Below the pieces are notes generated by a model. It was not told the origin of the DNA. It was given only the letters and a program-made list of their open reading frames with translations, and did no database searches. Made by a program: the position numbers and the translations under genes. From Escherichia coli (GTDB lineage: Bacteria > Pseudomonadota > Gammaproteobacteria > Enterobacterales > Enterobacteriaceae), in assembly GCF_044647545.1 (NCBI RefSeq), contig NZ_CP172818.1: a stretch of 64,000 bases of DNA; one strand, written 5' to 3'. This document shows positions 3,181 to 42,181 of the stretch, in pieces; within the stretch, counting starts at the first letter, position 1, and each line of letters starts with the position of its first letter.

Positions 3181-3193
3181 TTGTTAAAGAGCA
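3181..3193 (-). promoter_or_regulatory. rrn leader boxA antiterminator, downstream of the rrn P1/P2 promoter region (about 3200-3450)
   Basis: Reverse complement reads TGCTCTTTAACAA, the boxA consensus; position is upstream of the 16S 5' end. Confidence 0.7.
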
Positions 3194-3457
3194 GTGCCGC
3201 TTCGCTTTTTCTCAGCGGCGCGGGGTGTGCATAATACGCTTTCCCGCTACAGAGTCAAGCATTTATTTTTGCTTTCTCTGCCGGAGTTCTCAGGAGAACC
3301 CCGCTGACCCGGCGGCGTGCTTGCCGTTGTTCCGTGTCAGTGGTGGCGCATTATAGGGAGTTATTCCGGCCTGACAAGAGGAAAATATAAAAACTTTATC
3401 GTTCGCTCATTTTTCAGGCAAAACATCTTAAATATAGTCTTTCCCGTCTAACTTATA

Positions 3458-3490
3458 GACAAAAACGAGCCCCGAAGGGCTCGTTTTATC
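3458..3490 (-). terminator. Rho-independent terminator after clpB
   Basis: GC-rich inverted repeat AAAACGAGCCC-GAA-GGGCTCGTTTT with flanking A/T runs, immediately 3' of the clpB stop. Confidence 0.75.
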
Positions 3491-3492
3491 AT

Positions 3493-6066
3493 TTACTGGA
3501 CGGCGACAATCCGGTCTTCATTAACTTCCAGGCGAATCACTTTACCCGGAACCAATTCACCAGACAGTATTTGCTGTGCCAGCGGGTTTTCGATCTGCTG
3601 CTGAATTGCACGTTTCAGAGGACGTGCACCATAGACCGGATCGTAACCGTTCTCGCTCAGCAGTTTCAGCGCCTCGTCAGAAATGTGGATTTCATAACCA
3701 CGTTCTTCCAGACGTTTATACAGACGTTTCAACTGAATCTGCGCAATCGACGCAATGTGCTGTTCACCCAGCGGATGGAAGACCACCACTTCATCGATAC
3801 GGTTAATGAATTCCGGACGGAAGTTATGGCTTACCACACCGAGCACCAGCTCTTTCATGTGCGCATAATCCAGTTCACCGAAGCGTTCCTGAATCAAATC
3901 GGAACCGAGGTTAGAGGTCATAATGACAACCGTATTACGGAAGTCGACCGTTCTCCCCTGCCCGTCAGTCAGACGCCCATCATCCAATACCTGCAACAGA
4001 ATGTTGAAGACATCCGGATGCGCTTTTTCCACTTCATCCAGCAGGATGACGGAATACGGACGACGACGCACCGCTTCGGTCAGGTAGCCACCTTCTTCAT
4101 AACCGACATATCCCGGAGGCGCACCAACCAGACGAGACACCGAGTGTTTCTCCATAAACTCGGACATATCGATACGGACCATCGCCTCGTCGCTATCAAA
4201 CATAAAGTTCGCCAGCGCCTTACAAAGCTCAGTTTTCCCCACACCCGTTGGGCCGAGGAACAGGAATGAACCAATCGGGCGATTTGGATCCGCCAGCCCC
4301 GCACGGCTACGACGAATAGCGTTAGATACCGCATCAACCGCTTCGTTCTGACCAATAACGCGATGGTGCAGTTCTTGCTCCATACGCAGCAGTTTTTCGC
4401 GCTCGCTTTCCATCATGCGAGAAACCGGAATCCCCGTCCAACGCGCCAGCACTTCAGCAATTTCGGCATCGGTCACTTTATTACGCAACAGACGCATAGT
4501 TTTGCCTTCGAGCTGCGTTGCGGCTTCCAGTTGCTTTTCCAGTTCCGGGATTTTGCCGTATTGCAGTTCAGACATCCGCGCCAGGTCACCCACACGGCGA
4601 GCCTGTTCAATAGCGATTTTCGCCTGTTCCAGTTCCGCTTTAATGGTCTGCGTACCAGAAAGCGATGCTTTCTCTGCTTTCCACTCTTCTTCTAACTCGG
4701 AGTACTGACGTTCTTTGTCGCTCAGTTCTTCGTTGAGCATATCCAGACGTTTTTTACTGGCTTCATCAGACTCTTTCATTAACGCCTGTTGTTCCAGTTT
4801 GAGCTGGATGATACGGCGATCGAGTCGGTCGAGTTCTTCTGGTTTTGAGTCAATCTGCATACGAATGCTGGATGCTGCCTCATCGATCAGGTCGATGGCT
4901 TTATCTGGCAGCTGGCGGTCAGCAATGTAGCGATGAGACAACGTCGCCGCTGCAACAATTGCCGGGTCAGTAATTTGCACATGGTGGTGCAGCTCGTAAC
5001 GTTCTTTCAGGCCACGTAGAATCGCAATGGTATCTTCAACAGAAGGCTCGGCAACAAACACTTTCTGGAAACGACGTTCCAGCGCAGCATCTTTTTCGAT
5101 GTACTGGCGATATTCGTCAAGCGTCGTGGCACCTACGCAGTGCAATTCACCACGCGCCAGCGCCGGTTTCAGCATGTTTCCGGCGTCCATTGCGCCATCG
5201 GCTTTACCCGCGCCGACCATGGTATGTAATTCGTCGATAAACAGGATGACGTTGCCTTCCTGTTTGGCAAGATCGTTAAGTACGCCTTTTAAACGTTCTT
5301 CAAACTCACCGCGATATTTCGCCCCAGCCACCAGCGCGCCCATATCCAGCGCCAGTACGCGGCGGCCTTTCAACCCTTCGGGCACTTCGCCGTTGATAAT
5401 ACGCTGCGCCAGACCTTCAACGATGGCAGTCTTACCGACGCCTGGTTCACCAATCAGTACCGGGTTATTTTTAGTACGACGTTGCAGCACCTGAATGGTA
5501 CGGCGAATTTCTTCATCACGACCAATCACCGGATCGAGTTTACCCTGTTCGGCTCGTTCGGTAAGGTCGATGGTATATTTTTTCAAAGCCTGACGTTGGT
5601 CTTCAGCACCTTGATCGTTCACGCTTTCACCTCCACGCATTTGTTCAATCGCTTGAGTAATGTTGGCGGTGGTCGCCCCTGCTGCTTTCAGGATGTCGGC
5701 CAGCGTGCCGCGAGACTCAAGTGCCGCCAGAACGAACAGTTCTGACGAGATAAAGTTATCACCACGTTTTTGCGCCAGCTTGTCGCAAAGATTAAGAACG
5801 CGCACCAGATCCTGTGATGGCTGGACATCACCACCAGTACCTTCAACCTGCGGTAAACGATTTAATGCCTGATTGATATCTGTGCGCAACTGGCCAGCAT
5901 TTATGCCAGCGGATGTTAATAAAGGACTAACCGAACCCCCTTCCTGATTCAGCAGGGCGCTCATTAAATGAAGTGGTTCGATGAATTGGTTGTCGTGCCC
6001 GAGTGCAAGTGATTGGGCATCGGCAAGAGCAAGCTGGAATTTATTAGTAAGACGATCCAGACGCAT
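3493..6066 (-). CDS. clpB: ClpB disaggregase chaperone (AAA+ Hsp100), 857 aa
   Basis: ORF 3493-6078; translation begins [18 protein letters not shown] at the second Met; two Walker A sites ([16 protein letters not shown]). Confidence 0.97.
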
Positions 6067-8992: not shown

Positions 8993-9388
<396 letters not shown>

Positions 9389-9412
9389 TCCTTTATATTG
9401 AGTGTATCGCCA

Positions 9413-9436
9413 ACGCGCCTTCGGGCGCGTTTTTTG
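9413..9436 (+). terminator. Rho-independent terminator after raiA
   Basis: ACGCGCCTTCGGGCGCGTTTTTT hairpin plus T-tract. Confidence 0.8.
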
Positions 9437-9491
9437 TTGACAGCGTGAAAACAGTACGGGTACTGTACTAAAGTCACTTAAGGAAACAAAC

Positions 9492-9539
9492 ATGAAACAC
9501 ACACCGTTTTTCTTCGCATTCTTTTTTACCTTCCCCTGA
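9492..9539 (+). CDS. pheL: pheA leader peptide (Phe-rich, 15 aa)
   Basis: ATG at 9492 encodes MKHTPFFFAFFFTFP-stop, with 7 Phe codons; preceded by AGGA RBS. Confidence 0.9.
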   Translation: MKHTPFFFAFFFTFP

Positions 9540-9586
9540 ATGGGAGGCGTTTCGTCGTGTGAAACAGAATGCGAAGACGAACAATA

Positions 9587-9616
9587 AGGCCTCCCAAATC
9601 GGGGGGCCTTTTTTAT
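9587..9616 (+). terminator. pheA attenuator terminator
   Basis: AAGGCCTCCCAAATCGGGGGGCCTTTTTTATT hairpin plus U-tract between pheL and pheA. Confidence 0.85.
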
Positions 9617-9637
9617 TGATAACAAAAAGGCAACACT

Positions 9638-10798
9638 ATGACATCGGAAAACCCGTTACTGGCGCTGCGAGAGAAAATCAGCGCGCTGGATGAAAAATTA
9701 TTAGCATTACTGGCAGAGCGACGCGAACTGGCCGTCGAGGTGGGAAAAGCCAAACTGCTCTCGCATCGCCCGGTACGTGATATTGATCGTGAACGCGATT
9801 TGCTGGAAAGATTAATTACGCTCGGTAAAGCGCACCATCTGGACGCCCATTACATTACTCGCCTGTTCCAGCTCATCATTGAAGATTCCGTATTAACTCA
9901 GCAGGCTTTGCTCCAGCAACATCTCAATAAAATTAATCCGCACTCAGCACGCATCGCTTTTCTCGGCCCCAAAGGTTCTTATTCCCATCTTGCGGCGCGC
10001 CAGTATGCTGCCCGTCACTTTGAGCAATTCATTGAAAGTGGCTGCGCCAAATTTGCCGATATTTTTAATCAGGTGGAAACCGGCCAGGCCGACTATGCCG
10101 TCGTACCGATTGAAAATACCAGCTCCGGTGCCATAAATGACGTTTACGATCTGCTGCAACATACCAGTTTGTCGATTGTTGGCGAGATGACGTTAACTAT
10201 CGACCATTGTTTGTTGGTCTCCGGCACTACTGATTTATCCACCATCAATACGGTCTACAGCCATCCGCAGCCATTCCAGCAATGCAGCAAATTCCTTAAT
10301 CGTTATCCGCAATGGAAGATTGAATATACCGAAAGTACGTCTGCGGCAATGGAAAAGGTTGCACAGGCAAAATCACCGCATGTTGCTGCGTTGGGAAGCG
10401 AAGCTGGCGGCACTTTGTACGGTTTGCAGGTACTGGAGCGTATTGAAGCGAATCAGCGACAAAACTTCACCCGATTTGTGGTGTTGGCACGTAAAGCCAT
10501 TAACGTGTCTGACCAGGTTCCAGCGAAAACGACGTTGTTAATGGCGACCGGGCAACAAGCTGGTGCGCTGGTTGAAGCGTTGCTGGTACTGCGCAACCAC
10601 AATCTGATTATGACCCGTCTGGAGTCACGCCCGATTCACGGTAATCCATGGGAAGAGATGTTTTATCTGGATATTCAGGCCAATCTTGAATCAGCGGAAA
10701 TGCAAAAAGCATTGAAAGAGTTAGGGGACATCACCCGTTCGATGAAGGTATTGGGCTGTTACCCAAGTGAGAACGTAGTGCCTGTTGATCCAACCTGA
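9638..10798 (+). CDS. pheA: Chorismate mutase / prephenate dehydratase (P-protein), 386 aa
   Basis: ORF track; translation [32 protein letters not shown]... Confidence 0.97.
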
Positions 10799-10803
10799 TG
10801 AAA

Positions 10804-10834
10804 AGGTGCCGGATGATGTGAATCACCCGGCACT
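10804..10834. terminator. Bidirectional terminator between convergent pheA and tyrA
   Basis: Inverted repeat GGTGCCGG...CCGGCACT between the two stop codons. Confidence 0.6.
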
Positions 10835-10840
10835 GGATTA

Positions 10841-11962
10841 TTAGTGACGGTTGTCATTCGCCTGACGCAATAACACGCGGCTTTCACTCTGAAAACGCTG
10901 TGCGTAATCGCCGAACCAGTGCTCCACCTTGCGGAAACTGTCAATAAACGCCTGCTTATCGCCCTGCTCCAGCAACTCAATCGCCTCGCCGAAACGCTTA
11001 TAGTAACGTTTGATTAACGCCAGATTACGCTCTGACGACATAATAATGTCGGCATAAAGCTGCGGATCCTGAGCAAACAGTCGCCCAACCATCGCCAGTT
11101 CAAGGCGGTAAATCGGCGAAGAGAGCGCCAGAAGTTGCTCAAGCTGAACATTTTCTTCTGCCAGGTGCAGCCCATAAGCAAAAGTAGCAAAGTGGCGCAG
11201 AGCCTGAATAAACGCCATATTCTGATCGTGCTCGACAGCGCTAATACGATGCAGCCGAGCGCCCCAGACCTGAATTTGCTCCAGAAACCATTGGTATGCT
11301 TCCGGCTTACGTCCATCACACCAGACCACAACTTGCTTTGCCAGGCTACCGCTGTCCGGGCCGAACATCGGGTGTACCCCCAGCACCGGACCATCATGCG
11401 CCGCCAGCATGGCCTGTAATGGTCCATTTTTCACCGATGCCAGATCGACCAGAATACAATCTTTCGGTAAAGGCGGTAATTTGCCGATAACTTGCTCAGT
11501 AACGTGGATTGGCACACTAACAATCACCATTCCGGCATCGGCAACAATATCAGCCGCTCGATCCCAGTCATGTTGCTCCAGAATCCGCACCTGATAACCC
11601 GATAGTGTCAGCATCTTCTCGAACAGGCGTCCCATCTGACCGCCACCGCCGACGATAACCACCGGACGCAGTGACGGACAAAGCGTTTTAAATCCTTTGT
11701 CGTTTTCACTGGAGTAAGATTCACGCATCACCCGACGCAAAACATCCTCAATCAGATCTGGCGGTACACCCAGAGCTTCCGCCTCTGCACGCCGCGAGGC
11801 CAGCATAGATGCCTCGCGCTCCGGAACATAAATAGGCAGTCCAAAGCGGCTTTTCACCTCGCCAACTTCAGCAACCAGTTCCAGACGCTTCGCTAATAAA
11901 TTCAGCAGCGCTTTATCGACTTCATCAATTTGATCGCGTAATGCGGTCAATTCAGCAACCAT
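10841..11962 (-). CDS. tyrA: Chorismate mutase / prephenate dehydrogenase (T-protein), 373 aa
   Basis: ORF track; translation [30 protein letters not shown]... Confidence 0.97.
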
Positions 11963-11972
11963 AATAAACCTC

Positions 11973-13043
11973 TTAAGCCACGCGAGCCGTCAGCTGCCCG
12001 TTCAGATCCTGATGAATTTCACGCAGCAAGGCATCGGTCATTTCCCAACTAATGCAGGCATCGGTGACGGATACACCGTATTTCATTTCACTGCGCGGTT
12101 GCTCGGAAGACTGATTGCCCTCGTGGATATTACTTTCAATCATCAGACCAATAATTGAGCGATTGCCATCTTTGATTTGAGCAACCACGGATTCTGCCAC
12201 CGCAGGCTGACGGCGATAATCTTTATTGGAATTACCGTGGCTGCAATCTACCATCAGAGACGGGCGCAGTCCCGCCTGTTCCATCTCTTTTTCACATTGC
12301 GCAACATCCGCAGGGCTATAGTTCGGCGCTTTACCACCGCGCAGGATCACATGCCCGTCCGGATTCCCCTGAGTTTGTAGCAACGCCACCTGCCCTGCCT
12401 GGTTAATGCCAACAAAACGGTGCGGCTGGGCGGCGGCACGCATAGCGTTAATAGCCGTTGCAAGGCTGCCGTCGGTGCCGTTTTTAAAACCAACCGGCAT
12501 GGAAAGCCCGGAGGCCATTTCACGGTGTGTTTGCGATTCCGTTGTACGAGCACCAATTGCTGACCAGCTAAACAGATCGCCCAGGTATTGCGGGCTATTC
12601 GGATCTAACGCTTCCGTCGCCAGTGGCAGTCCCATATTCACCAGCTCAAGCAGCAATTTACGCGCGATCTGCAGCCCGGCTTCTACATCAAAAGAGCCAT
12701 CCATATGGGGATCGTTAATCAACCCTTTCCAACCGACAGTGGTACGGGGTTTTTCAAAATAGACGCGCATTACCAGATAGAGGCTATCGCTGACCTCTGC
12801 GGCAAGGGCTTTAAATCGACGAGCATATTCCAGAGCAGTTTCCGGATCATGAATGGAACAAGGACCACAGACTACCAACAGACGAGGATCGCGCCCGGCG
12901 ATAATATCTGAAATGGTTTTACGCGAGTCAGCAATCTGGGCTTCCTGTTGCAGGCTTAATGGAAAAGCGGCCTTCAGTTGTTCCGGAGTCATTAAAACTT
13001 GTTCGTCGGTAATATGTACGTTATTCAGCGCGTCTTTTTGCAT
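11973..13043 (-). CDS. aroF: DAHP synthase, Tyr-sensitive, 356 aa
   Basis: ORF 11973-13112; start taken at the internal Met giving [24 protein letters not shown]... Confidence 0.93.
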
Positions 13044-13189
13044 GATGGCGATCCTGTTTATGCTCGTTTGCGATAGTTGATCCTCAGCGAGGATGACGTA
13101 ACGATAACACATAAAGTAAAGTTTTCAATCCATATTTCGTACATTTTTCTTTACACAAGCAATTTATTCGCGCTTTTAACCCTTGTTTA

Positions 13190-13207
13190 TGTATAAATAA
13201 ATTTACA
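13190..13207. promoter_or_regulatory. TyrR box in the aroF promoter region
   Basis: TGTATAAATAAATTTACA matches the palindromic TyrR box TGTAAA-N6-TTTACA in the half-site positions. Confidence 0.6.
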
Positions 13208-13252
13208 CCACCTTTGAAAACAATCCGCTATGCTTTGAAAAAGGAGAAAGAA

Positions 13253-13618
13253 ATGATGAAAAAGTTTATTGCCCCCTTGTTGGCTTTACTGGTTAGCGGA
13301 TGTCAGATTGATCCTTATACTCACGCGCCAACCTTGACCAGCACCGACTGGTATGATGTCGGTATGGAAGATGCGATATCGGGCAGCACCATAAAAGATG
13401 ACGATGCATTTAGCGATTCACAGGCGGATCGCGGTCTATACCTTAAAGGATATGCCGAAGGACAAAAGAAAACTTGCCAGACCGATTTTACTTATGCCCG
13501 GGGACTTTCCGGTAAAAGCTTTCCTGCCAGCTGCAACAATGTTGAAAATGCCAGCCAACTGCATGAAGTATGGCAAAAAGGGGCTGATGAAAATGCCAGC
13601 ACAATACGATTAAATTAA
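13253..13618 (+). CDS. yfiL: Lipoprotein YfiL, 121 aa
   Basis: ORF 13214-13618; start taken at ATG 13253, 6 nt after AAGGAG; lipobox LVSGC. Confidence 0.8.
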   Translation: MMKKFIAPLLALLVSGCQIDPYTHAPTLTSTDWYDVGMEDAISGSTIKDDDAFSDSQADRGLYLKGYAEGQKKTCQTDFTYARGLSGKSFPASCNNVENASQLHEVWQKGADENASTIRLN

Positions 13619-32325: not shown

Positions 32326-32952
32326 ATGACATACGATAGTGAATTCGGATCACATGTATCCCTATATCGGGATAGAATCAAACAGGTTATTGATGACTCC
32401 CTAAACGAACATCTTAACTCAATGATTCTACGTGTTGATCTGCATGACCCAATTGATACAGAAAATATGGATAACCCATTCTTTCAACCCAGGGTTGACT
32501 CTGGTGCTATATCTCGCTTTACCAGTGCGTTAAAAGCAAAGCTTAAACATGATAAGCATATTAAAACTCAACGGAAAGACTGGCCTGATAGTCGACATTC
32601 CACTTTACGTTACGCATGGGTCAGAGAATATACCAAAAATAGAAAGCGGCATTACCATTTGATACTGTGTTTCAATCAGGATGCTTATTATCATTTAGGT
32701 GATTACGACTTAAACCGTAACACGTTACGTACAATGATAACGACAGCTTGGTACAGTGCACTTGGCATCCCTATAGATAGCTCGGGGAAGTTAGTTAATT
32801 ACCCGCCAAATGGCAAATACCTTCTCAATCGTAAAAGGGACAACTTTGAGCAGACTTATAGCGATTTGATGAATAGGGTGGATTACATGACCAAAGTAAG
32901 GACTAAAATAGTCGGTGACGGAGACCGTAATTTCGGCTGCAGTCGCGGGTAA
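32326..32952 (+). CDS. yfjJ: YfjJ, YagK/YfjJ family (inovirus Gp2-like replication-initiator family), 208 aa
   Basis: ORF track; family assignment by recollection. Confidence 0.8.
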   Translation: MTYDSEFGSHVSLYRDRIKQVIDDSLNEHLNSMILRVDLHDPIDTENMDNPFFQPRVDSGAISRFTSALKAKLKHDKHIKTQRKDWPDSRHSTLRYAWVREYTKNRKRHYHLILCFNQDAYYHLGDYDLNRNTLRTMITTAWYSALGIPIDSSGKLVNYPPNGKYLLNRKRDNFEQTYSDLMNRVDYMTKVRTKIVGDGDRNFGCSRG

Positions 32953-33129
32953 TTTATTTTTTACAACAATGGCCTTTCTTATGGCTGGAAAGGCCTGATT
33001 TGTTTGTATTAAGATATCGGTAATCTTTTGATGGTTGGAAGCCCGTCCTGGTAGACGACCTAGCCTACCGAAGATGTGAGTTATTCAAAAATGTCGCTTT
33101 CCCGCGTTCCGTAGACAAACGTACCTAAA

Positions 33130-35319
33130 TCAATGTCGTCTAATACCGAGCGCGCGCCTGATAAACATCTGATCAACGTACCCAATCGATCTACTCCAAA
33201 TGTCCTGAGTATCCCGAAGATACTGGCTCAACTCATCCACATCAGCCTCGTCGGAAAATTCCAGCAAGTCTACCAGTCGGTGTAACGTCTGAATGGGAAT
33301 GCCAATCTCTTCTAAGGCATTGACACCTGGTGGTAGATGGAAACTTTCGAACGCCAATTTGACATGTGTGTAATCGACTTTGCTGCGTATACCACGCTTT
33401 ACAGCGTGGTGTTTAACTACATCCTCCATCAAGCTGAGCACCTTAGGTAGGGTATAGCCGAAGGTATTGGTTATGAGCTTCAAATCATTGTTGAGGGCAA
33501 TGGAAAGAGTACGTTTCTCCCCTTCAGAAATCCACTGTCGTGCATAATCGATCTGATTTTTCAGATATTCCGAATAACTTTCAGCACTTAAATAGCCGGC
33601 AAGTTTTGCGATCATGACATCCGTAGGCTTAACAGGGACCCCATTGCGACTGAACGTATGGGGAACCAGTCTGGCAATGATCTTTGCAAAGGTCTTGAGG
33701 AAGTTTGTCGCGGGAGTCCAGTGAAACACTAACGAGGAAAATTCGTTATCGTCCATCATCTCGAACATGCTTTGCAGCATTTCGAACTGCTCGACACGGA
33801 AGTACGAATGCTTCTTCACAAGGTCGATGGAAACACGGTCGTTTATGAAAACCTCATCAAAGCGATCCTGTGAAAACTCGGACAAGTGGTCTGGTTGAAC
33901 GCTGGCTAACAGGTTGATTGGGGTATCAATGCCCTGAATACCGAGCGGAATATCCACCTCTTGATTGAGATTGTCTTCCGGGATTTCCTCCAGGCAAAAG
34001 ATTTTGCCGACGAAGTGAACGCCCATGCGCCCGGCGCGACCTTTGATGTTCCCATGGGTGAATTTGTCAATGCTGCGAGTTCCATCGCGGTTGTCGTAGA
34101 TCACAACGTTCTTAGCGATAGTGTTGACTCCTTCAATGATCGTGGAGGTGCAGAGCAAAAAGCGCAGTTTTCCAGCATTGAATTGGTCGGCAGTGTATTG
34201 CTGCAGTGCCCTCGGTAGCGCGCCAAAATGCAAGCCAATACCGTTTCTAAGGGCGACTGTGTAATCCCAGTCGGCATCGAACTCTTCGCTGACCCAGTCG
34301 ACATGGGGATTCTCAGTCGGAGTGCCATGCCCAAGCCTGATCAGCTCGCGCGCCACCAGGCCCGCAACAGTTGGTGACTTGCAATAAATGATCGTTGCGT
34401 CGACACATGCGTGCGCGATTTCCCCCAGCGCTTTGAGCTTGGCTTTGTCGTCATTCGCTTTGATGCCGAACGTCTTAACATCTAGCGCGACTGTATTGAA
34501 GTCGGTAGAAACGAAAGTATGCGGATATCCAAGTTTTTCGAGACCGCGAATGCTGTTAACGAACGGTCCCGTCAGGTAAAACTGCCTGGAGACCTTAAGC
34601 AGTTTGCTTAACGCAATGTTGAGCTCGATGACTCGTTCGTCTTGATGATCAATGTCCCCGCTTTTCAGTTGTCGGAACGCCAACTTGTAAAACTCGTCAA
34701 TGACGAAGAGGTCAATGTCGACGATGTCGTCACGCTCGTTCACTCGCTCCTGAGTTAACACATAAACAGCCTGATCGGAATGGCACACTTGGGAACTGTG
34801 GTGGATGATCTGATATCGGTCACCGAATCGCTCTTGCAGTCGGCGACGGGTTTCGTCGGCAAGAGCCACGGTTGGAACAACCAGAACAAGCCGTTTCAAA
34901 GTTCCCATGCCGAGCAATGAATCGACGATTGCACTTTTGCCCATGCTTGTAGGTGCACTCAGCACCACGTTTTGACCAGACTTGAGCAGATCGAATATGT
35001 GGAACTGCATTGAGTGGAAAACATAACCATCCGAGAATGGCGTCCGGTATAGCTCAAGCACCCTCAGGTCATCCGGTGTCAGGCTGGTGAACTCCTTTTT
35101 GAGATACGGGAACAAACCTGATTTTCTCACCATATTTTTCAAAATTGTGGTGTGCTCGGAAAACCGCTCGCGCGAATCGAGAGCTCGCACGATCAAGTCC
35201 CGTCCCAAGTCATACGAAACAGGGTTAGACAACAGCTTGTTAACCGCAAACAGATAATTGAACGATGAGAAGTCCTCACCCTGCAGGCTATGTTTCGCCT
35301 GTTCATAGATCTCTGTCAT
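33130..35319 (-). CDS. yfjK: SF2 DEAD/DEAH-box helicase YfjK, 729 aa
   Basis: ORF track; Walker A APTSMGKS, motif II VIDEFY, motif VI GRAGRMG visible in the translation; start overlaps yfjL stop (ATGA). Confidence 0.92.
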   Translation of the reverse strand: MTEIYEQAKHSLQGEDFSSFNYLFAVNKLLSNPVSYDLGRDLIVRALDSRERFSEHTTILKNMVRKSGLFPYLKKEFTSLTPDDLRVLELYRTPFSDGYVFHSMQFHIFDLLKSGQNVVLSAPTSMGKSAIVDSLLGMGTLKRLVLVVPTVALADETRRRLQERFGDRYQIIHHSSQVCHSDQAVYVLTQERVNERDDIVDIDLFVIDEFYKLAFRQLKSGDIDHQDERVIELNIALSKLLKVSRQFYLTGPFVNSIRGLEKLGYPHTFVSTDFNTVALDVKTFGIKANDDKAKLKALGEIAHACVDATIIYCKSPTVAGLVARELIRLGHGTPTENPHVDWVSEEFDADWDYTVALRNGIGLHFGALPRALQQYTADQFNAGKLRFLLCTSTIIEGVNTIAKNVVIYDNRDGTRSIDKFTHGNIKGRAGRMGVHFVGKIFCLEEIPEDNLNQEVDIPLGIQGIDTPINLLASVQPDHLSEFSQDRFDEVFINDRVSIDLVKKHSYFRVEQFEMLQSMFEMMDDNEFSSLVFHWTPATNFLKTFAKIIARLVPHTFSRNGVPVKPTDVMIAKLAGYLSAESYSEYLKNQIDYARQWISEGEKRTLSIALNNDLKLITNTFGYTLPKVLSLMEDVVKHHAVKRGIRSKVDYTHVKLAFESFHLPPGVNALEEIGIPIQTLHRLVDLLEFSDEADVDELSQYLRDTQDIWSRSIGYVDQMFIRRALGIRRH

Positions 35320-36932
35320 ACGACCTCTCTCACCTTCTCATCAACTAATTGGGTTAACCGCTCAAGACTCGGGGCTGGATAAATGAATACGTGGATGCAA
35401 AGATTCGCAAACGGCGAATCCTCGATGAGGTCAGCCGCGAATTTTTCGAACAGCACCGCTGTTTCTTTCTCCAGGTCATCCTCGAACCCCGGCGTTTCAG
35501 GCTCGGTTAGTAGATTAGAGTCGTAGCCCACGAACAGAACAAACGTGAAACGATCGAGGTGAGCATCGAAAGGTTGGCTGCCATCAAGAATTTCGTCAAT
35601 GTCGTGGCGAAGCAGGTAGTTATCGTCTTTAATGTCGAGGATTTTTTTGCGCGCGGTATCGATGCAATCCGAAATGTCCTCGTACAACTGATCCCGTATC
35701 TCCGGCAATCTGACGGCAATGTTAATATCAGTCACCAACTCGCTGAAGCCAATCCAAAGCTGATCACCTTCTGGATCGCGGCGAACGATATGCACGTTTT
35801 CAAGAATTTTTTCGGCCCCTGCTTTTTCCACGTATAGCATGCAAGGAATAGGCTGGCTTTCGTGGTGCTGCCGGATCGTTGCGTGCAACAGCACTCGACC
35901 CAAAAATTCGCTGACGTCATGGAGCGATTTGAAGACGGAATTCTTTAGTCGTTCTCGCTTTTCAATGAATGTCAGTTTATGAATATCAGACATTTCTTTT
36001 GGTCGGAGAAAAACCTCATCCAACCATTGACAGACGTTATCCGCGATGTGCTTGTAGCGGTATTTCTTAAGTGAGTACTGCTGATGTAGAACCTGGCCTT
36101 TACGCTTAGCGCAGACCGAAGCCATAGGCGCTCTAAATGGCGTAAGGATGTGGGGTAAGTCCCGTTTGACGTAGATTTTGCGGCCTGACCGAGATTGGTC
36201 ATCTTCGACACGCTGCTTGAACCACTCAAGTAGGTCTGGTCGTAAGTAGGACTTGTCATCAGCACTGTGAATGCGTCGAGAATGCTCGCCCTTGCGCGTC
36301 ACAGTATCAAGGATGCGGCACCAAATGTCTTCGGCGACGGTTTCGGAACTGAGAATGACCCCATGTAGATCTTGGGAGGCCAGCCGTATGTTCTTGATCC
36401 CTAGAAGTTCCAGTTCGCGCAGGGATGAAAACACTTCCCATGTAGCCGCATCGATCCAATCTGAAACGCTTATACCTGAGTCTGTTAAAAAATTGTCTGT
36501 GCGTTTGTTGAGGTCATCGATGAGTTCCTGTCGACCTGGCTTATCTAGTCGGGCGTTTGGGCTGATCGTCAAGTACTCAAGGGTTTTGTTGACCTTTTCC
36601 TCTGTGACGATGGAGTACCTACGTCCAAGGGACAGGTCAGACTCACACTGCATTGATTTGTGCAAAATTGAACTGCAGGGGATCGTCTTTTTATCAGCAC
36701 CTTTTGAATTCTGAACGATGTCCGAAATGTTCCAACGTGTTTTGCCGGTGCTTTTTACCTGAACGAAGTCGATGTATCCATCAGATACAATGTCGATATC
36801 GTCTGTGACCTCGCAGCGCACACTGCGGATAGTCTTGTCACGAAGCATTCGGGTGACATGGTAAGCGGCTACGCAGTCCTGAAATAAGAAACCGTGCTTG
36901 GCGGCTACTCCGCCTGAATCGTTCGACTCCAT
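35316..36932 (-). CDS. yfjL: YfjL, 538 aa, putative nuclease-like N-terminal domain plus large C-terminal domain of unknown function
   Basis: ORF track; N-terminal GFLFQD...EVTDDIDIV...DFVQVKS resembles a PD-(D/E)xK/QxK core; translationally coupled to yfjK. Confidence 0.88.
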   Translation of the reverse strand: MESNDSGGVAAKHGFLFQDCVAAYHVTRMLRDKTIRSVRCEVTDDIDIVSDGYIDFVQVKSTGKTRWNISDIVQNSKGADKKTIPCSSILHKSMQCESDLSLGRRYSIVTEEKVNKTLEYLTISPNARLDKPGRQELIDDLNKRTDNFLTDSGISVSDWIDAATWEVFSSLRELELLGIKNIRLASQDLHGVILSSETVAEDIWCRILDTVTRKGEHSRRIHSADDKSYLRPDLLEWFKQRVEDDQSRSGRKIYVKRDLPHILTPFRAPMASVCAKRKGQVLHQQYSLKKYRYKHIADNVCQWLDEVFLRPKEMSDIHKLTFIEKRERLKNSVFKSLHDVSEFLGRVLLHATIRQHHESQPIPCMLYVEKAGAEKILENVHIVRRDPEGDQLWIGFSELVTDINIAVRLPEIRDQLYEDISDCIDTARKKILDIKDDNYLLRHDIDEILDGSQPFDAHLDRFTFVLFVGYDSNLLTEPETPGFEDDLEKETAVLFEKFAADLIEDSPFANLCIHVFIYPAPSLERLTQLVDEKVREVV

Positions 36933-37190
36933 TTAGACATCCGTGACAATTTTGCGAAAATTAAGGAGATGTTATGACACAGTCCAATCGGATCACTGCA
37001 TCATCACCAGTGATCTAAATACTTCACAGCCATTCTCGGTCGCAGGTATCAAGCTTTTCAGGATTCCACAAATATTGTAACCCTGACGTCTAATTTGGTT
37101 ATATAACATACTGCCCCAACTAACGTAAGGTAGGCACAGCCTTAATCAAGGTTTTGGTTTTCAAATAGTTCAGAGCTGAGACCGCCAACC

Positions 37191-37242
37191 GCACTATGGC
37201 ACTATGGCACTATGGCACTATGGCACTATGGCACTATGGCAC
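37191..37242. repeat. Octanucleotide tandem repeat (GCACTATG) x6.5 flanked by ACCGCCA
   Basis: Read directly: gcactatg repeated six times plus gcac; 7-bp ACCGCCA on both sides; lies between yfjM stop and yfjL start. Confidence 0.95.
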
Positions 37243-37291
37243 CGCCAGCGATTGTAATCACACTTGATATTATAAAACACAGTTGCACGCA

Positions 37292-37555
37292 TTATTTCCT
37301 GGTTGGTAGGGTCATATCTCGATGCTCTTTGAGCAATGTCAACATCGCGTGTTCATGGCTTTCTATATTGTTGATGCCTTGCCCATCCGGACCCCACTCC
37401 TTATAGCTCATCATGATGGCTTGTTTTGGGCTCTCTGCTCGTTCTGTTTCGACGTAGAATTTTTTCTTGTCTGCTGGCGAATAATTACTAAGTATCGAGT
37501 TGCTGCTTGGTGAGATCAGGAAGAGGTTACCGAAACGATGGACATCATCCCCCAT
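37292..37555 (-). CDS. yfjM: Hypothetical protein YfjM, 87 aa
   Basis: ORF track; divergent from rnlA. Confidence 0.7.
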
Positions 37556-37696
37556 TTTGTGGACTGCCCCCCCGGTAGACGATCCTGCCCTATAGTTGGA
37601 GTGCCCCCTATTCAGGTGGCTAAATTTAGCAAATCAATACACTTCAGGGGGGTATTATTGTAGAGTTTCCCCATATGTTTCTATGGGATCCAGGAA

Positions 37697-38770
37697 ATGA
37701 CAATCAGGAGTTACAAAAACTTAAATCTGGTCAGGGCAAATATCGAGACTGAATCCAGACAATTCATTGAAAATAAAAACTATTCAATCCAATCAATTGG
37801 TCCTATGCCAGGGTCAAGGGCTGGGCTTCGGGTCGTATTTACCAGACCAGGGGTTAACTTGGCAACTGTGGACATTTTTTATAACGGGGACGGTTCGACT
37901 ACAATTCAATATCTCACTGGAGCCAATCGTTCTCTGGGCCAAGAGTTAGCGGATCATCTTTTTGAAACCATCAATCCTGCTGAATTTGAGCAGGTAAATA
38001 TGGTACTGCAAGGATTTGTAGAGACAAGCGTTCTACCTGTACTTGAGCTATCAGCAGATGAATCGCATATAGAGTTCAGAGAACACTCTCGTAACGCTCA
38101 TACCGTAGTGTGGAAAATTATTTCCACCAGCTATCAGGACGAATTGACTGTGAGCCTGCATATCACAACAGGTAAGCTCCAGATTCAGGGCCGACCGCTG
38201 TCATGTTACAGAGTTTTCACGTTTAACTTGGCAGCCCTGCTTGATTTACAGGGTTTGGAGAAAGTGCTAATCCGCCAGGAGGATGGTAAAGCTAATATTG
38301 TTCAACAGGAGGTTGCCCGCACTTACTTGCAGACTGTAATGGCCGATGCTTACCCGCATCTCCACGTGACTGCCGAAAAATTGCTCGTTTCAGGGCTATG
38401 TGTTAAACTCGCCGCCCCTGATTTGCCTGACTACTGTATGTTACTTTATCCTGAACTACGCACCATTGAAGGTGTCTTAAAAAGTAAGATGAGTGGGTTA
38501 GGCATGCCAGTACAGCAGCCGGCAGGTTTTGGAACTTACTTTGATAAACCTGCTGCTCATTACATTCTGAAACCGCAATTTGCAGCTACTCTTAGACCGG
38601 AACAGATTAACATCATCAGCACAGCCTATACTTTTTTTAATGTGGAACGTCATTCTCTGTTCCACATGGAAACTGTGGTCGATGCCAGCCGTATGATTTC
38701 TGATATGGCCCGGTTGATGGGTAAAGCCACTAGAGCGTGGGGAATAATCAAGGACTTATATATTGTTTGA
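37697..38770 (+). CDS. rnlA: RnlA toxin (RNase LS endoribonuclease), 357 aa
   Basis: ORF track; translation MTIRSYKNLNLVRANIETESRQFIENKNY... recognised as RnlA. Confidence 0.92.
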   Translation: MTIRSYKNLNLVRANIETESRQFIENKNYSIQSIGPMPGSRAGLRVVFTRPGVNLATVDIFYNGDGSTTIQYLTGANRSLGQELADHLFETINPAEFEQVNMVLQGFVETSVLPVLELSADESHIEFREHSRNAHTVVWKIISTSYQDELTVSLHITTGKLQIQGRPLSCYRVFTFNLAALLDLQGLEKVLIRQEDGKANIVQQEVARTYLQTVMADAYPHLHVTAEKLLVSGLCVKLAAPDLPDYCMLLYPELRTIEGVLKSKMSGLGMPVQQPAGFGTYFDKPAAHYILKPQFAATLRPEQINIISTAYTFFNVERHSLFHMETVVDASRMISDMARLMGKATRAWGIIKDLYIV

Positions 38771-39134
38771 AATCACCGGAATTAACGTCTCAGGGGCTCT
38801 AAAAGCTGTCGTTATGGCGACCGGCTTCGAGAACCCTTTGTCCTCAGTTAATGAAATTGAGACGAAACTTTCTGCCCTACTGGGTAGTGAGACCACTGGT
38901 GAAATCCTTTTTGACCTCTTGTGCGCTAACGGTCCAGAGTGGAACCGCTTCGTTACGCTGGAAATGAAATATGGCCGGATCATGCTGGATACGGCCAAAA
39001 TTATTGATGAGCAGGACGTTCCGACACATATCCTGAGCAAACTGACTTTTACTTTACGTAATCATCCTGAGTACCTAGAAGCCTCTGTTTTGTCTCCCGA
39101 TGATGTACGCCAAGTCCTGTCAATGGATTTTTGA
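38763..39134 (+). CDS. rnlB: RnlB antitoxin, 123 aa
   Basis: ORF track (TTG start overlapping rnlA 3' end by 8 nt); translation (M)FEITGINVSGALKAVVMATGFENPL... Confidence 0.88.
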   Translation: MFEITGINVSGALKAVVMATGFENPLSSVNEIETKLSALLGSETTGEILFDLLCANGPEWNRFVTLEMKYGRIMLDTAKIIDEQDVPTHILSKLTFTLRNHPEYLEASVLSPDDVRQVLSMDF

Positions 39135-39488
39135 AACTCTTCTTTCTAAACGAACCAGTATAGAATTCGCCCTTTTGGCATGATATTAACTTGTCCAATA
39201 TGATCAAATAGCATTAACCCCCCCTCACAACGTCCTGCATAGGGAACACGTTTTCCCCTGTGCACCCACGACTAAATTTCCCCCCCTTTAAACTTCTCAA
39301 TAATGTCACCAATTTTCTGGAAATCCTATGATGCCTTTCCCGGTAAATGGTGCTGTGAGTTCAGAAAGATTCTGCAATCTATGTGCATTGAAAAAATCTT
39401 CAGATAGATATCATTCTCCTGAACAATCCGATGAACGGCAGAACCTCGCGGTTCTGCCGTTTTTGTTTTACTTTTCAGAGGAGTGGTG

Positions 39489-40352
39489 ATGAAAAATTTT
39501 GAAGTTCTGCAGCCACTACAGAACTCCCTTTCCGGTCTACCGCTATGGGTATCTGAACGTATATTGCAGCAGATAAATCAGTTAACCCACTACGAGCCAG
39601 TGATCGGCATCATGGGTAAAACTGGGGCGGGAAAGAGTAGCCTTTGCAATGCCCTGTTTGCCGGTGAAGTATCGCCGGTCAGCGATGTAGCGGCCTGTAC
39701 ACGTGATCCTTTACGCTTTCGCCTGCAGATTGGAGAACACTTTATGACCATCGTGGATCTGCCCGGCGTGGGCGAAAGTGGCGTTCGCGATACCGAGTAT
39801 GCTGCGCTGTACCGCGAACAACTTCCCCGGCTCGACCTGATTCTGTGGCTGATTAAGGCTGATGATCGGGCACTGGCGACTGATGAGCATTTTTACCGTC
39901 AGGTGATTGGCGAAGCATACCGGCATAAGATGCTGTTTGTTATCAGCCAGTCAGACAAAGCTGAACCCACCAGCGGTGGAAATATCCTTTCCACAGAGCA
40001 GAAACAAAATATCAGCCGCAAAATCTGCCTGCTGCATGAGCTATTCCAGCCCGTGCATCCGGTGTGTGCCGTGTCGGTTCGCCTGCAGTGGGGACTAAGG
40101 GTGATGGCAGAGCGGATGATTAAGTGTCTGCCGCGTGAGGCCAGCAGCCCGGTAGTAGCGCTACTGCAACATCCCTTTCGAACAACGGTAGCCCGGGAGC
40201 AGGCACGTGACGATTTCGGTGAAACCGTAGGTGCCATACTCGATACGGTAAGCACCTTTCCCCTTATTCCCGCCCCGGTGCGGACCATTATTCAGGCCGT
40301 GCGTTCCTCGGTGGTGTCAGTGGCCCGCGCTGTCTGGGATTTCTTCTTCTGA
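39489..40352 (+). CDS. yfjP: YfjP, prophage P-loop GTPase (YeeP/YkfA family), 287 aa
   Basis: ORF 39483-40352; ATG at 39489 five nt after GAGGAG; G1 motif GKTGAGKSS, DLPG G3 motif. Confidence 0.88.
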   Translation: MKNFEVLQPLQNSLSGLPLWVSERILQQINQLTHYEPVIGIMGKTGAGKSSLCNALFAGEVSPVSDVAACTRDPLRFRLQIGEHFMTIVDLPGVGESGVRDTEYAALYREQLPRLDLILWLIKADDRALATDEHFYRQVIGEAYRHKMLFVISQSDKAEPTSGGNILSTEQKQNISRKICLLHELFQPVHPVCAVSVRLQWGLRVMAERMIKCLPREASSPVVALLQHPFRTTVAREQARDDFGETVGAILDTVSTFPLIPAPVRTIIQAVRSSVVSVARAVWDFFF

Positions 40353-40380
40353 GTGTTTAATTCTGCCCTATTATTCTCCG

Positions 40381-40412
40381 AGCCCTGTCGCAAGTGCGGC
40401 AGGGCTTTCTTT
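40381..40412 (+). terminator. Rho-independent terminator after yfjP
   Basis: AGCCCTG-TCGCAAGTGCGG-CAGGGCT followed by TTCTTTATTT. Confidence 0.7.
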
Positions 40413-40443
40413 ATTTGTTTTACCCATACTGAGGAGTCTGCTT

Positions 40444-41263
40444 ATGACCCGTCTGGCTTCGCGCTTTGGCGCTGCAAACCAGATACGCCGTGACCGTCCG
40501 CTGACACATGAAGAACTGATACGCCATGTACCCAGTATTTTTGGGGAAGACCGGCACATCCCGCAGTGAACGGTATGCGTACATTCCCACCATTACCGTC
40601 CTGGAAAATCTGCAGCGGGAAGGCTTTCAGCCGTTCTTCGCCTGCCAGACCCGTGTGCGCGACCCGGGCCGCCGGGGATACACAAAACACATGCTGCGTC
40701 TGCGGCGGGCCGGAGAGATAAACGGAGAACATGTCCCTGAAATTATTCTGCTCAACTCTCATGACGGTACCTCCAGCTACCAGATGCTGCCGGGTTACTT
40801 CAGGTTCGTCTGCCAGAACGGGTGCGTCTGTGGCCAGTCTCTGGGGGAAGTGCGTGTTCCACACCGGGGAAATGTAGTGGAGAAAGTTATCGAAGGGGCT
40901 TACGAGGTGGTGGGCGTGTTTGACCGGATAGAGGAGAAGCGTGATGCCATGCAGTCGCTGGTCCTGCCGCCACCGGCACGCCAGGCGCTGGCACAGGCGG
41001 CACTGACTTACCGTTATGGTGACGAACATCAGCCCGTCACCACCGCCGACATTCTGACGCCGCGACGCCGGGAGGATTACGGTAAGGACCTGTGGAGCGC
41101 ATATCAGACCATCCAGGAGAATATGCTGAAAGGCGGGATTTCCGGTCGCAGTGCCAGAGGAAAACGTATCCATACCCGGGCCATTCACAGCATTGATACC
41201 GACATTAAGCTCAATCGCGCATTGTGGGTGATGGCAGAAACACTGCTCACGCAACTGCAGTAG
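40444..41263 (+). pseudogene. yfjQ: yfjQ (DUF932 family), apparently disrupted: 41-codon N-terminal frame ends at 40567, remaining 245 codons are in the +1 frame from 40526
   Basis: ATG 40444 with GAGGAG RBS encodes MTRLASRFGAANQIRRDRPLTHEELIRHVPSIFGEDRHIPQ-stop; the long ORF 40526-41263 is in a different frame; the total span (820 nt) is not a multiple of 3. Confidence 0.6.
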
Positions 41264-41479
41264 ACGTTTCATGTTGCCACGTTGTTAATATCGGACACCA
41301 CCTGTCCGCATCGCTATGTGCTCGTGTGCCTCAATCCCCCGGTTATAGCTTTTAACCCCCGTTACATCTGGCTTTTGCAGAAATAAAAAATAGTTTCTGC
41401 GTTGTCCATACCCTGTCCGCCCCCCTCTTTAAAGTAATCACATCATTTTCAGTCAGTTAACTTTCCTGGAGAATCTCTC

Positions 41480-42181
41480 ATGACACAGGCAGAACGCCGC
41501 CATGACCGGCTGGCTGTCAGGCTGTCACTGATAATCAGCCGTCTGGTTGCGGGTGAAACGTTGAGCGTGCGCAAACTGGCGGCTGAGTTTGGCGTGTCAG
41601 TGCGCACGCTGCGGCGTGATTTTCGTGAACGACTGATGTATCTGGACCTGGAGTATCAGTCCGGATACTGCCGCTTACGCACTGCTGGCAGTGAGATGCA
41701 GATGGTGCCCGACGTGCTTATCTTTGCCCACCGCAGCGGGCTGGCCGGGCTTTTTCCCGGCCTTGACCGCCGTCTGGTGAATGCACTGCTGATGTGCGAT
41801 GAGTCTCCCTGCGTGATAGCACCAGCCAATCCGGTTCCTTCGCCTTCAGGAGCATTGTCTTTCTGGAGACTGATTCAGGCCATTACCGGGCGCAGGCGGG
41901 TGACGCTGATTGCAGAGGGGCGACGCTGTGAGCGCCTAGCTCCCTGCCGGTTACTCATCCACCAGCAGACCTGGTATCTGGTGGCTGAACACGAAGGGCA
42001 TATCGCCGTATTCACACTTGATGAAATCCATCTGATTCAGCCTTTGCAGGAGACTTTTCGCCGCAATGACAGTCTGTGTCGCCTGGTTGAAGACCCGGTC
42101 TTCATTCAGGCCTTACCCCATTTTCGCTTTATCCAGCATTCACTGCTTACGTTTGTTCCGGCCGACAGCCCACCGGAATAG
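41480..42181 (+). CDS. yfjR: YfjR, putative transcriptional regulator with N-terminal HTH (DeoR-like), 233 aa
   Basis: ORF track; translation [48 protein letters not shown]... Confidence 0.85.

Follow-up and report, generated by a model that had tools for sequence, protein, structure and literature searches.

A probable remnant of a GmrSD-type restriction gene, yfjM, between the RnlAB and AbpAB defense systems of Escherichia coli K-12

The small reading frame yfjM of Escherichia coli K-12 lies between two phage defense systems, and raises the question of whether it serves either of them, as a regulator or accessory component, or has some other origin. The stretch of DNA analyzed (64,000 nt, referred to as the window, and the source of all coordinates given below) is the K-12 cryptic prophage CP4-57 with its variable defense cargo region. 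An earlier annotation made from the DNA letters alone (the sequence-only reading) had described yfjM, the toxin-antitoxin pair rnlAB and the helicase system yfjL-yfjK as a compact defense cluster. The ORF coordinates and lengths it gave, the TTG start of rnlB, the 8 nt overlap of rnlA and rnlB, and the 141 bp spacer between yfjM and rnlA are all confirmed by the ORF list, and the RefSeq gene models of identical K-12 records agree with the yfjM, rnlA and rnlB frames. From the abpB (yfjK) stop codon to the rnlB stop codon is 6,005 bp, and since rnlAB and yfjL-yfjK are known defense systems placed within about 6 kb of the variable CP4-57 cargo, the proposal of a defense island with two immunity modules, RnlAB and AbpAB (a Hachiman variant), is upheld. 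The status of this stretch as a defense cluster is already known, and both systems are well studied.

The toxin gene rnlA (37697-38770, plus strand, 357 aa) encodes RNase LS, a HEPN-type endoribonuclease. Its product carries the Pfam domains RnlA_toxin_N, RnlA_toxin, RnlA-toxin_DBD and HEPN_RnaseLS (PF19417, PF15935, PF19034 and PF18869; E 1e-11 to 1e-44), three of them at E 1e-25 to 1e-44 and far above chance, and residues 1-357 align over the full length with the solved E. coli toxin (PDB 4I8O/6Y2P; 796 bits, E 1.7e-239). The antitoxin gene rnlB (38763-39134, plus strand, 123 aa, with a matching RefSeq model) encodes an RnlB_antitoxin domain (PF15933, E 9e-29) and overlaps rnlA at 38763-38770, an overlap that recurs in a 73%-identical homologue at one of the compared loci (L011). 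The pair was thus correctly recognized as a known type II toxin-antitoxin system; it is RnlA-RnlB of E. coli K-12 itself, alike in domain set, overlap and RnlA alignment and without difference, and LsoA-LsoB is a relative. RnlA degrades mRNA once the labile RnlB is lost after phage shutoff of host expression, and the T4 protein Dmd counters it (PMC5535158, PMC10732053); neutralization of toxicity by RnlB and activity against T4 dmd mutants are credited to Koga 2011 and Otsuka 2010 as cited in the same two articles.

On the other side of yfjM, and on the minus strand, is abpA (yfjL; 35316-36932, 538 aa), which encodes a fusion of a Cap4-type nuclease domain with a HamA domain (Pfam Cap4_nuclease 1e-55, HamA 4e-41; PADLOC HamA1 3e-266). 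It overlaps by 4 nt with abpB (the RefSeq name of yfjK; 33130-35319, minus strand, 729 aa), which encodes a HamB-type Ski2-like helicase (Pfam DEAD and Helicase_C; PADLOC HamB1 E 4e-220), giving an operon of a HamA protein and a DEAD helicase. These are abpA-abpB themselves, with no difference from the AbpAB/Hachiman (HamAB) system of the experimental literature (PMC10732053, PMC12278908), which Tuck et al. class as a Hachiman variant (PMC12278908). A paper on toxin-antitoxin modulation of Hachiman, considered as evidence for coupling between RnlAB and AbpAB, concerns PezAT in Streptococcus and provides no support for it.

The third gene, yfjM (37292-37555, minus strand, 87 aa), had been thought to lack a recognizable identity, a view that is not supported. 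The first 77 codons of its frame are the 3' end of a GmrSD-type gene, and the remaining 10 or so are read out of frame from an IS3 remnant. In Pfam, YfjM covers only positions 77-126 of the 138 in the GmrSD_C profile (E 6e-6, above the gathering score), and shows homology to the last part of the DUF1524 (GmrSD_C) domain of the GmrSD-family type IV restriction enzymes (DUF262 plus DUF1524), whose relatives include BrxU and SspE and which are represented in PADLOC by the models Orf5, HEC-06 and mREase_IV. Intact DUF262-DUF1524 proteins of 641 aa share 95-97% identity with it over their residues 555-641, with a tblastn value of 95.4% against the C-terminus of a 641-aa plasmid-encoded protein of Citrobacter and Enterobacter. 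Most homologues among 1.84 billion representative sequences are about 600-700 aa long and match at their extreme C-terminus (127 representative hits). A word-indexed search returned only fragments of 47-100 aa and suggested a conserved small protein; full-length parents were then found by plasmid tblastn, a genome scan and an all-against-all representative search, and that idea was dropped. The 'YfjM' of the Pfam 2024 paper is an unrelated Bacillus subtilis protein.

The parent of yfjM is a GmrSD-type (DUF262-DUF1524) enzyme of 632-641 aa, with GmrSD_N at residues 12-218 and GmrSD_C at 529-611 of the 641-aa form. It matches the PADLOC models Orf5, HEC-06 and SspE, and its gene is paired with one for a DUF262-DUF7834 protein, forming a putative two-gene type IV restriction system. 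Homology to the parent gene spans 37330-37560 and ends at 37560, so that the yfjM start codon is an internal methionine of the parent (residue 555 of 641) and the gene is cut 5 bp upstream of it. Compared with the family, YfjM has 87 of 641 residues and a chimeric C-terminus, and Pfam finds no DUF262 (GmrSD_N) domain in it. The SVEHYFPQ motif (H542) of intact homologues lies 13 codons upstream of the part retained, leaving YfjM with an incomplete GmrSD_C domain that lacks the Glu-His of this catalytic-type motif and retains GNL...N...N from the His-Me-finger region. By the general pattern of the family, the histidine of SVEHYFPQ would be the catalytic base.

The other end of the frame is equally altered. 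The native stop codon has been lost (TGA to CGA), extending the frame about 10 codons into an IS3-family (ISEc16-like) transposase remnant (37112-37329, minus strand) that retains the last 45 or so transposase codons, the stop codon and the right inverted repeat. The remnant can be aligned with ISEc16 as far as the terminal ...GATCA of that element, blastn matches it to IS3/ISEc16 transposase genes of about 4,300 E. coli genomes, and its junction with the parent gene was placed by comparing Raoultella with Citrobacter. Within it, TRF identified a perfect 8 bp tandem repeat, GCACTATG, in 6.5 copies (37191-37242). ISEc16 and most relatives have one copy of this unit, one compared locus (L006) has three and strain MB06021 has 10.5, and a gain of one unit is on record from two evolution experiments (laboratory and gut evolution). 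Some 100-150 bp separate the repeat from the mapped abpA promoter, which lies downstream of it. This promoter of yfjLK, constitutive and of the sigma-70 type (37063-37092, minus strand, TAGACG-18-TGGAAT), was published in a genomic SELEX table (PMC3946193), and its hexamers fall at 37087 and 37063; abpAB has its own promoter downstream of yfjM. No Rfam family came near its threshold in a scan of 36800-39600.

Related loci contain the same junction in various states. On plasmids of Citrobacter and Enterobacter the gene for the 641-aa parent immediately precedes abpA, and the arrangement is also found in Citrobacter sp. On2M (97%; locus L015), Providencia and Pantoea; of the six relatives found, four (in Citrobacter and Providencia) have the parent intact, and that of Pantoea is frameshifted. 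A block of 4,446 bp (33115-37560, minus strand), comprising the stub, IS3 remnant, promoter, abpA and abpB, is shared at 88-96.5% identity with six Enterobacterales loci. By blastn, 33115-37560 matches positions 8996-13401 of Citrobacter sp. On2M at 96.5% and 39387-41777 matches 3190-5582 at 74%, with nothing common to the two genomes between 37560 and 39387; the higher identity of the stub block compared with the flanking backbone points to a recent exchange of the block. The linkage of yfjM to yfjLK is due to descent of one shared block of DNA and not to function. A stub or parent adjoins abpAB in the Enterobacterales clade; more distant abpAB loci have no stub.

The stubs do not form a conserved ORF. 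They begin at parent codon 526 (L003), at 555 in K-12 and at the same position in L005, at about 567 in Tenebrionibacter, where the stub is fused behind a type III res gene, or at 590 in Mixta, where an intact IS3-family element abuts it, and they end in either a 78-aa type or the 87-aa read-through type. The Tenebrionibacter and Mixta stubs thus lack the K-12 methionine start and the first 12-35 residues of YfjM. All five truncations fall within codons 526-590, around the nuclease motif, and such clustering, with two of them identical, is not predicted by purely random decay. Together with the retained GNL...N...N region, it would fit a YfjM that keeps some activity of its parent, for instance in binding DNA or in acting as a dominant negative against incoming GmrSD-type enzymes. 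With the motif Glu-His and the entire DUF262 domain gone, three K-12-specific replacements (C12F, R21I and L43P) at otherwise invariant positions, and no support from other genomes, this is extremely unlikely.

On the K-12 branch of the stub these three nonsynonymous changes and one synonymous change were counted, compared with none and three on the intact-gene branch; these counts are tiny and not statistically significant, but the pattern suggests relaxed constraint and was counted in support of a remnant. Pairwise dN/dS between the stub and intact genes (0.11-0.15) was dropped in favor of these polarized branch counts, as it is uninformative for the stub because most of the divergence sits on branches where the gene was intact. 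No Shine-Dalgarno sequence was found at normal spacing before the yfjM ATG, a G-run being placed 11 nt upstream, and a sigma-70-like match facing yfjM (TAGAAA-18-AATAAT, 37683-37654, minus strand) is weak; shuffled sequence yields promoter-like matches at least as often as this region does.

The 141 bp spacer between yfjM and rnlA (37556-37696) is real, although it is a mosaic junction and not the co-evolved divergent promoter region it had been proposed to be. In it, 5 bp of the parent gene are followed by a 49 bp repeat, 39 further bp and a conserved last 49 bp. The 49 bp unit (37560-37608, plus strand), placed by local blastn at the 5' breakpoint of the yfjM stub, is a dispersed repeat matched in 778 E. 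coli genomes (362 of them K-12-type); among the matches listed it overlaps no annotated gene. It was considered as a candidate IS end, and it adjoins the IS110-like ISEc20 in one genome and stands alone in others. The rnlA-proximal 49 bp (37648-37696, plus strand; core TATTGTAGAGTTT) are shared with the rnlAB homologue of strain 24AR0070, and presumably contain the rnlA promoter, 5'UTR and ribosome-binding site; this comparison adds to the description of RnlA-RnlB an upstream limit of conservation at 37648. Of the loci compared, only K-12 was found to have the rnlAB-carrying segment of 1,826 bp (37561-39386, plus strand), whose place in Citrobacter sp. On2M is taken by the DUF262-DUF7834 gene and codons 1-554 of the GmrSD-type gene. 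Terminal repeats that would make rnlAB a discrete mobile cassette were sought, and only weak 12-22 nt matches were seen, none of them convincing.

The presence of yfjM at other rnlAB and abpAB loci bears directly on the suggestion that it encodes a functional small protein regulating or assisting either system. That suggestion draws on the intact 87-codon ORF, its position divergent from rnlA and upstream of abpA, the weak promoter-like site facing it, and a stub or parent next to abpAB at every Enterobacterales locus of the clade. An ASKA over-expression screen for oxidant resistance (PMC8228696) includes yfjM in one of its lists, which also has to be set against the reading as a remnant. In the case of rnlAB, however, neither rnlA nor rnlB was present at any of 13 yfjM-related loci examined, contrary to the expected co-occurrence; the adjacency of yfjM and rnlAB was found only in K-12, and a lambdoid prophage of another E. 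coli carries an rnlAB homologue and has neither yfjM nor abpAB. In the case of abpAB, loci of Aeromonas, Pseudomonas and Shewanella that are 82-85% identical, and that delimit a conserved core corresponding to 33131-37000, have no stub. The functional AbpAB clone pST4-1 (PMC10732053), when mapped here, is a HindIII fragment covering 32539-37051 and excludes yfjM. Taken alone it leaves room for a role of yfjM in trans, because the hosts were mostly K-12 with a chromosomal copy, but the clone and the 82-85%-identical loci together show that yfjM is not a required or conserved third component of AbpAB. A start codon derived from an internal methionine of a larger enzyme, a C-terminus of out-of-frame IS sequence, the shortened Tenebrionibacter and Mixta stubs, the replacements at invariant residues and the lack of a normally spaced Shine-Dalgarno all speak against the small-protein interpretation as well, which is accordingly judged quite improbable.

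A role for the stub DNA in cis, whether as an upstream expression or insulation sequence for abpAB or as a homology anchor for cassette swaps at this hotspot, would explain why three abpAB-linked lineages, otherwise stripped of the restriction genes, all have 508 bp or more ahead of the abpA ATG, and would fit the contrast between block and backbone identity of K-12 and Citrobacter. Against it, the outgroup abpAB loci share with K-12 no more than 30-68 bp ahead of abpA, a 20 bp deletion in Tenebrionibacter removes the -35 hexamer of the mapped promoter, and pST4-1, cut at the HindIII site at 37051 and thus downstream of that promoter, still confers defense from a plasmid. A cis role is therefore unlikely. 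Improbable, too, is a scar that is not inert because the 8 bp repeat tunes AbpAB expression, or because GmrSD-type stubs, cut close to the nuclease motif, are retained for protection against the parent enzyme or for avoiding its toxicity; were this so, yfjM and the spacer would be a functional adaptor of the island and not debris.

The explanation that we favor, and regard as likely, is that two intact, characterized systems act here independently, and that yfjM is the decayed 3' stub of a third, GmrSD-type module and belongs to neither. From the arrangement of homologies and breakpoints we infer an order of events in which an IS3-family-associated event in an Enterobacterales ancestor would have placed abpAB directly after the stop codon of the GmrSD-type gene. 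Several lineages may later have lost the restriction genes independently, through removal from upstream, with stubs of unequal length left behind. In K-12 the cut would have fallen just short of the internal methionine now called as a start, the mutated stop codon would have let the frame run on into the IS remnant, and rnlAB with its own short upstream region would have come to occupy the place of the lost genes; the 87-aa product is probably non-functional. The same scar of IS3 remnant and restriction-gene stub marks the Enterobacterales copies of AbpAB, whereas those of Aeromonas, Pseudomonas and Shewanella are without it. Gene remnants left by IS-associated deletion in defense islands and cryptic prophages are close parallels, as yfjM likewise lies between an IS3-family remnant and a dispersed repeat, and the Mixta stub is similarly bordered by an IS3-family element; unlike these, yfjM is still annotated as protein-coding, and the 2024 y-ome lists it as an ordinary protein-coding y-gene and not a pseudogene (PMC11551758).

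The outcome is a useful re-annotation of a y-gene and not a new system. As a chimeric stub of a lost GmrSD-type gene, yfjM can be taken off the list of functions to discover, and its identity as a remnant argues for annotation as a pseudogene. The locus also provides a base-by-base record of turnover at a hotspot, with abpAB added, the restriction pair lost repeatedly and rnlAB in its place in K-12. A better description of the island is two live modules with the wreck of a third. For K-12 as a phage host this means two working systems and not three, and no hidden third component to consider for RnlAB or AbpAB.

E. coli K-12 chromosomes match the region at 100% identity, and RefSeq labels the genes there abpB, abpA, yfjM, rnlA, rnlB and yfjP, within the cryptic element CP4-57 (flanked on the left by intA, alpA and yfjH-J, and on the right by yfjP-T). 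A six-frame ORF list bore out the gene models of the sequence-only reading: yfjM (37292-37555, minus strand, 87 aa), rnlA (37697-38770, plus strand, 357 aa), rnlB (38763-39134, plus strand, 123 aa, with a TTG start and an 8-nt overlap with rnlA) and the 141-bp yfjM-rnlA spacer (37556-37696); abpA (yfjL, 35316-36932) and abpB (yfjK, 33130-35319) are on the minus strand. This arrangement is present in 362 of 5,426 complete E. coli genomes, nearly all of them K-12 or laboratory strains among the matches listed, and separate searches with abpAB, yfjM and rnlAB each gave the same count. Just upstream of yfjP, a strong terminator-like hairpin (39433-39462; 13-bp stem, then a T-run) sits in sequence conserved with paralogous yfjP-type upstream regions of other E. 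coli, and Rfam sRNA matches over it were weak and sub-threshold.

The claim of a defence island also held, with both modules recognised by domain matches. RnlA has three RnlA domains and an RNase LS-type HEPN domain, RnlB matches the RnlB family (Pfam), and the crystallised toxin (PDB 4I8O and 6Y2P) aligns over its full length with RnlA residues 1-357 (796 bits). YfjL contains Cap4_nuclease and HamA domains and YfjK a DEAD-box helicase domain (Pfam); PADLOC identified them as HamA (E 3e-266) and HamB (E 4e-220). The biology of RnlAB and AbpAB is already known, and both are textbook cases. AbpAB blocks many DNA phages via abortive infection, is triggered by T4 Gp32 or host DNA damage, and depends on nuclease residues of AbpA and on the ATPase of AbpB (PMC10732053). 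For rnlAB, PMC5535158 (citing Otsuka 2010 and Naka 2014/2017) describes one promoter upstream of rnlA and an internal one about 280 nt upstream of rnlB, repression of rnlA by IscR, and RNase HI as a third player. In other E. coli, a 73%-identical rnlAB pair follows the tail-fibre genes in a lambdoid prophage and has neither yfjM nor abpAB in its vicinity; the homology of this pair to K-12 starts just 49 bp before rnlA. A plasmid record of Bacillus thuringiensis CT-43 (HM037272.1) encodes, at 36163-36750, a fragment 95% identical to residues 343-538 of E. coli AbpA; this looks like cloning-host contamination or misassembly.

YfjM matches only positions 77-126 of the 138-position GmrSD_C (DUF1524) profile (E 6e-6), and in PADLOC it aligns with the last ~50 residues of the 560-790-aa Orf5, SspE and HEC-06 models. 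Of 1.84 billion representatives searched exhaustively with phmmer, 127 matched, most of them proteins of ~600-700 aa aligned at the extreme C-terminus, and tblastn against plasmids found DUF262-domain genes that match YfjM at 95.4% identity over their last 87 codons. The parent protein on Citrobacter freundii pRHBSTW-00267_2 has 641 aa (GmrSD_N 12-218, GmrSD_C 529-611); upstream of its gene lie a DUF262-DUF7834 gene (446 aa) and a type III restriction-modification pair, and abpA-abpB come directly after it. The 'orphan' yfjM is most likely what is left of a third, wrecked defence module.

At its 5' end, K-12 stops matching the intact gene at 37560, which is 5 bp before the yfjM ATG; this ATG corresponds to Met555 of the parent. 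The parental motif SVEHYFPQ (Glu541-His542), 13 codons upstream of Met555, is gone from K-12; its His542 is presumably the catalytic base of a His-Me finger. The motif lies inside the GmrSD_C match and aligns with tlEHiyP of the solved DUF262 protein 9JFL. The junction is made by a 49-bp unit (37560-37608, TGGACTGCCCCCCCGGTAGACGATCCTGCCCTATAGTTGGAGTGCCCCC), a dispersed repeat that matches 778 E. coli genomes (362 of them K-12-type) 1-5 times each, with no annotated gene over it among the matches listed. In FDAARGOS_944 it occurs twice in tandem directly after an IS110-like ISEc20 transposase gene, and in strain 201609 a single unit adjoins a large DEAD/DEAH helicase gene. The 3' junction was placed by comparing Raoultella and Yersinia loci, which are without abpAB, with Citrobacter: the abpAB-bearing insert begins in the parent's last 2-3 codons (position 9227 of the Citrobacter plasmid locus, window ~37329). 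The first ~220 bp of this insert represent the 3' part of an IS3-family element; 37243-37308 matches IS3/ISEc16 transposase genes in thousands of genomes, and the ISEc16 alignment continues beyond the transposase stop and reaches the terminal inverted repeat, ending at 37112. The junction codon is a TGA stop in Tenebrionibacter and CGA/CGT in K-12 and Citrobacter, so that the frame extends ~10 codons into IS sequence, not in the transposase frame. These junctions make yfjM a three-part chimera of a junction-created start, 77 restriction-gene codons and an IS-derived tail.

A 4,446-bp block (33115-37560) is common to K-12 and six Enterobacterales loci at 88-96.5% identity. Its downstream end is at 33115 in five of the six and at 33127 in Pantoea, and its upstream end differs by locus (37560, 37520 or 37440). 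Outgroup abpAB loci from Aeromonas, Pseudomonas and Shewanella, picked via AbpA (86-87% identical) and not YfjM, are shared with K-12 only over 33131-37000, and both the stub and the IS remnant are absent from them. The yfjM-abpAB linkage is thus the scar of one ancestral insertion and not a conserved operon feature. In Aeromonas (L021-L023, 2421-9797), abpAB directly follows alpA, a DUF3987 gene and a yfjJ-like gene and has their orientation; the element is of one integrative type with CP4-57, except that its cargo lies on the other side of yfjJ and has no scar. The functional AbpAB clone pST4-1 is a 4,512-bp HindIII fragment (PMC10732053), and the HindIII sites at 32539 and 37051 are separated by exactly this length, which leaves yfjM outside the clone. 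The constitutive RpoD promoter reported for yfjLK (TAGACG-18-TGGAAT, PMC3946193) was placed at 37092-37063, downstream of yfjM, and RpoS SELEX likewise marks this spacer. A perfect 8-bp tandem repeat (GCACTATG, 6.5 copies, 37191-37242) has arisen within the transposase remnant, from RWRRHS codons; ISEc16 and most relatives have a single copy, the Citrobacter plasmid has three and the K-12-type strain MB06021 has 10.5. One unit was gained in macrophage-adaptation and heat-adaptation experiments (PMC4709186, PMC12812777), and a yfjL/yfjM intergenic mutation from mouse-gut evolution (PMC10340439) may be the same event. This hypermutable site lies some 100-150 bp upstream of the abpA promoter.

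Scanning one genome per species added seven loci, and all loci were sorted by protein and DNA comparison. The intact restriction pair is followed by abpAB on a Citrobacter plasmid (L006) and in Citrobacter sp. On2M, Providencia alcalifaciens and Pantoea sp. (frameshifted), and occurs without abpAB on a Raoultella plasmid (L007) and in Yersinia rohdei (L014) and Citrobacter JGM124. A stub followed by abpAB is found in K-12 (from codon 555), Tenebrionibacter (~567) and Mixta theicola (590), and stubs in other contexts in L003 (from 526, adjoining tniQ-cas genes) and in L004 and L005 (adjoining repC). None of the intact-pair and stub comparison loci carries rnlAB. The suggestion that yfjM serves as regulator or accessory of either neighbour is not supported: its linkage to abpAB is an insertion scar that the outgroup abpAB loci lack, and rnlAB is absent from the yfjM-related loci compared.

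The Mixta stub borders on an intact IS3-family element (orfA and orfB), giving a direct example of truncation associated with an IS, whereas in K-12 the junction holds the 49-bp dispersed repeat unit. The five independent truncations (K-12, L002, L003, L005 and L017) all fall at codons 526-590 of 641, within the last ~115 codons and around or just past the nuclease motif; longer stubs, which the search would have detected, were not seen. It may be that N-terminally truncated, nuclease-competent forms are selected against. K-12 and the metagenomic L005 (~187) are cut within 1-3 nt of one position, just 5' of AAAATGGGGG, and are joined to unrelated DNA beyond it; L004, the L005 element from another sample, runs on into the parent gene. 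The shared site may reflect chance, a hot spot or an assembly artefact. In L003, tniQ and a Csy2-like cas gene directly follow the 78-aa stub (222-458), which probably marks the cargo boundary of a Tn7-like CRISPR-associated transposon. Several Enterobacterales (L006, L007, L014 and L001/L002) carry the restriction pair and abpAB, on plasmids and chromosomes, as part of a larger island, with a type III restriction-modification pair upstream (Res 96-98% identical) and a GT9 glycosyltransferase and radical-SAM gene set downstream; the Tenebrionibacter island additionally has SNF2, DUF4391 and UvrD-like helicase genes.

Eight codons differ between K-12 yfjM and its closest intact relative, in On2M. 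When polarised with six other sequences, the K-12 branch has C12F, R21I and L43P, all at positions that do not vary among the other sequences, plus one synonymous change, and the branch to the intact On2M and Citrobacter plasmid genes has three synonymous changes and no replacements. The numbers are small, but their direction fits relaxed constraint. The re-annotation of yfjM is a modest new point, the remainder being already known.

In On2M, a yfjQ/yfjP-type backbone (74% identical to 39387-41777) is followed by the intact restriction pair and then the shared block (33115-37560, here 96.5% identical). The 1,826 bp of K-12 that hold rnlAB and its flanks (37561-39386) lie exactly in place of 3,413 bp in On2M, comprising the DUF262-DUF7834 gene and codons 1-554 of the GmrSD-type gene. 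K-12 could have reached this state either by replacement in situ or by importing a block that was already truncated. The difference in identity between block (96.5%) and backbone (74%) points to a recent exchange of the defence block, as horizontal cargo, between diverged CP4-57-like elements.
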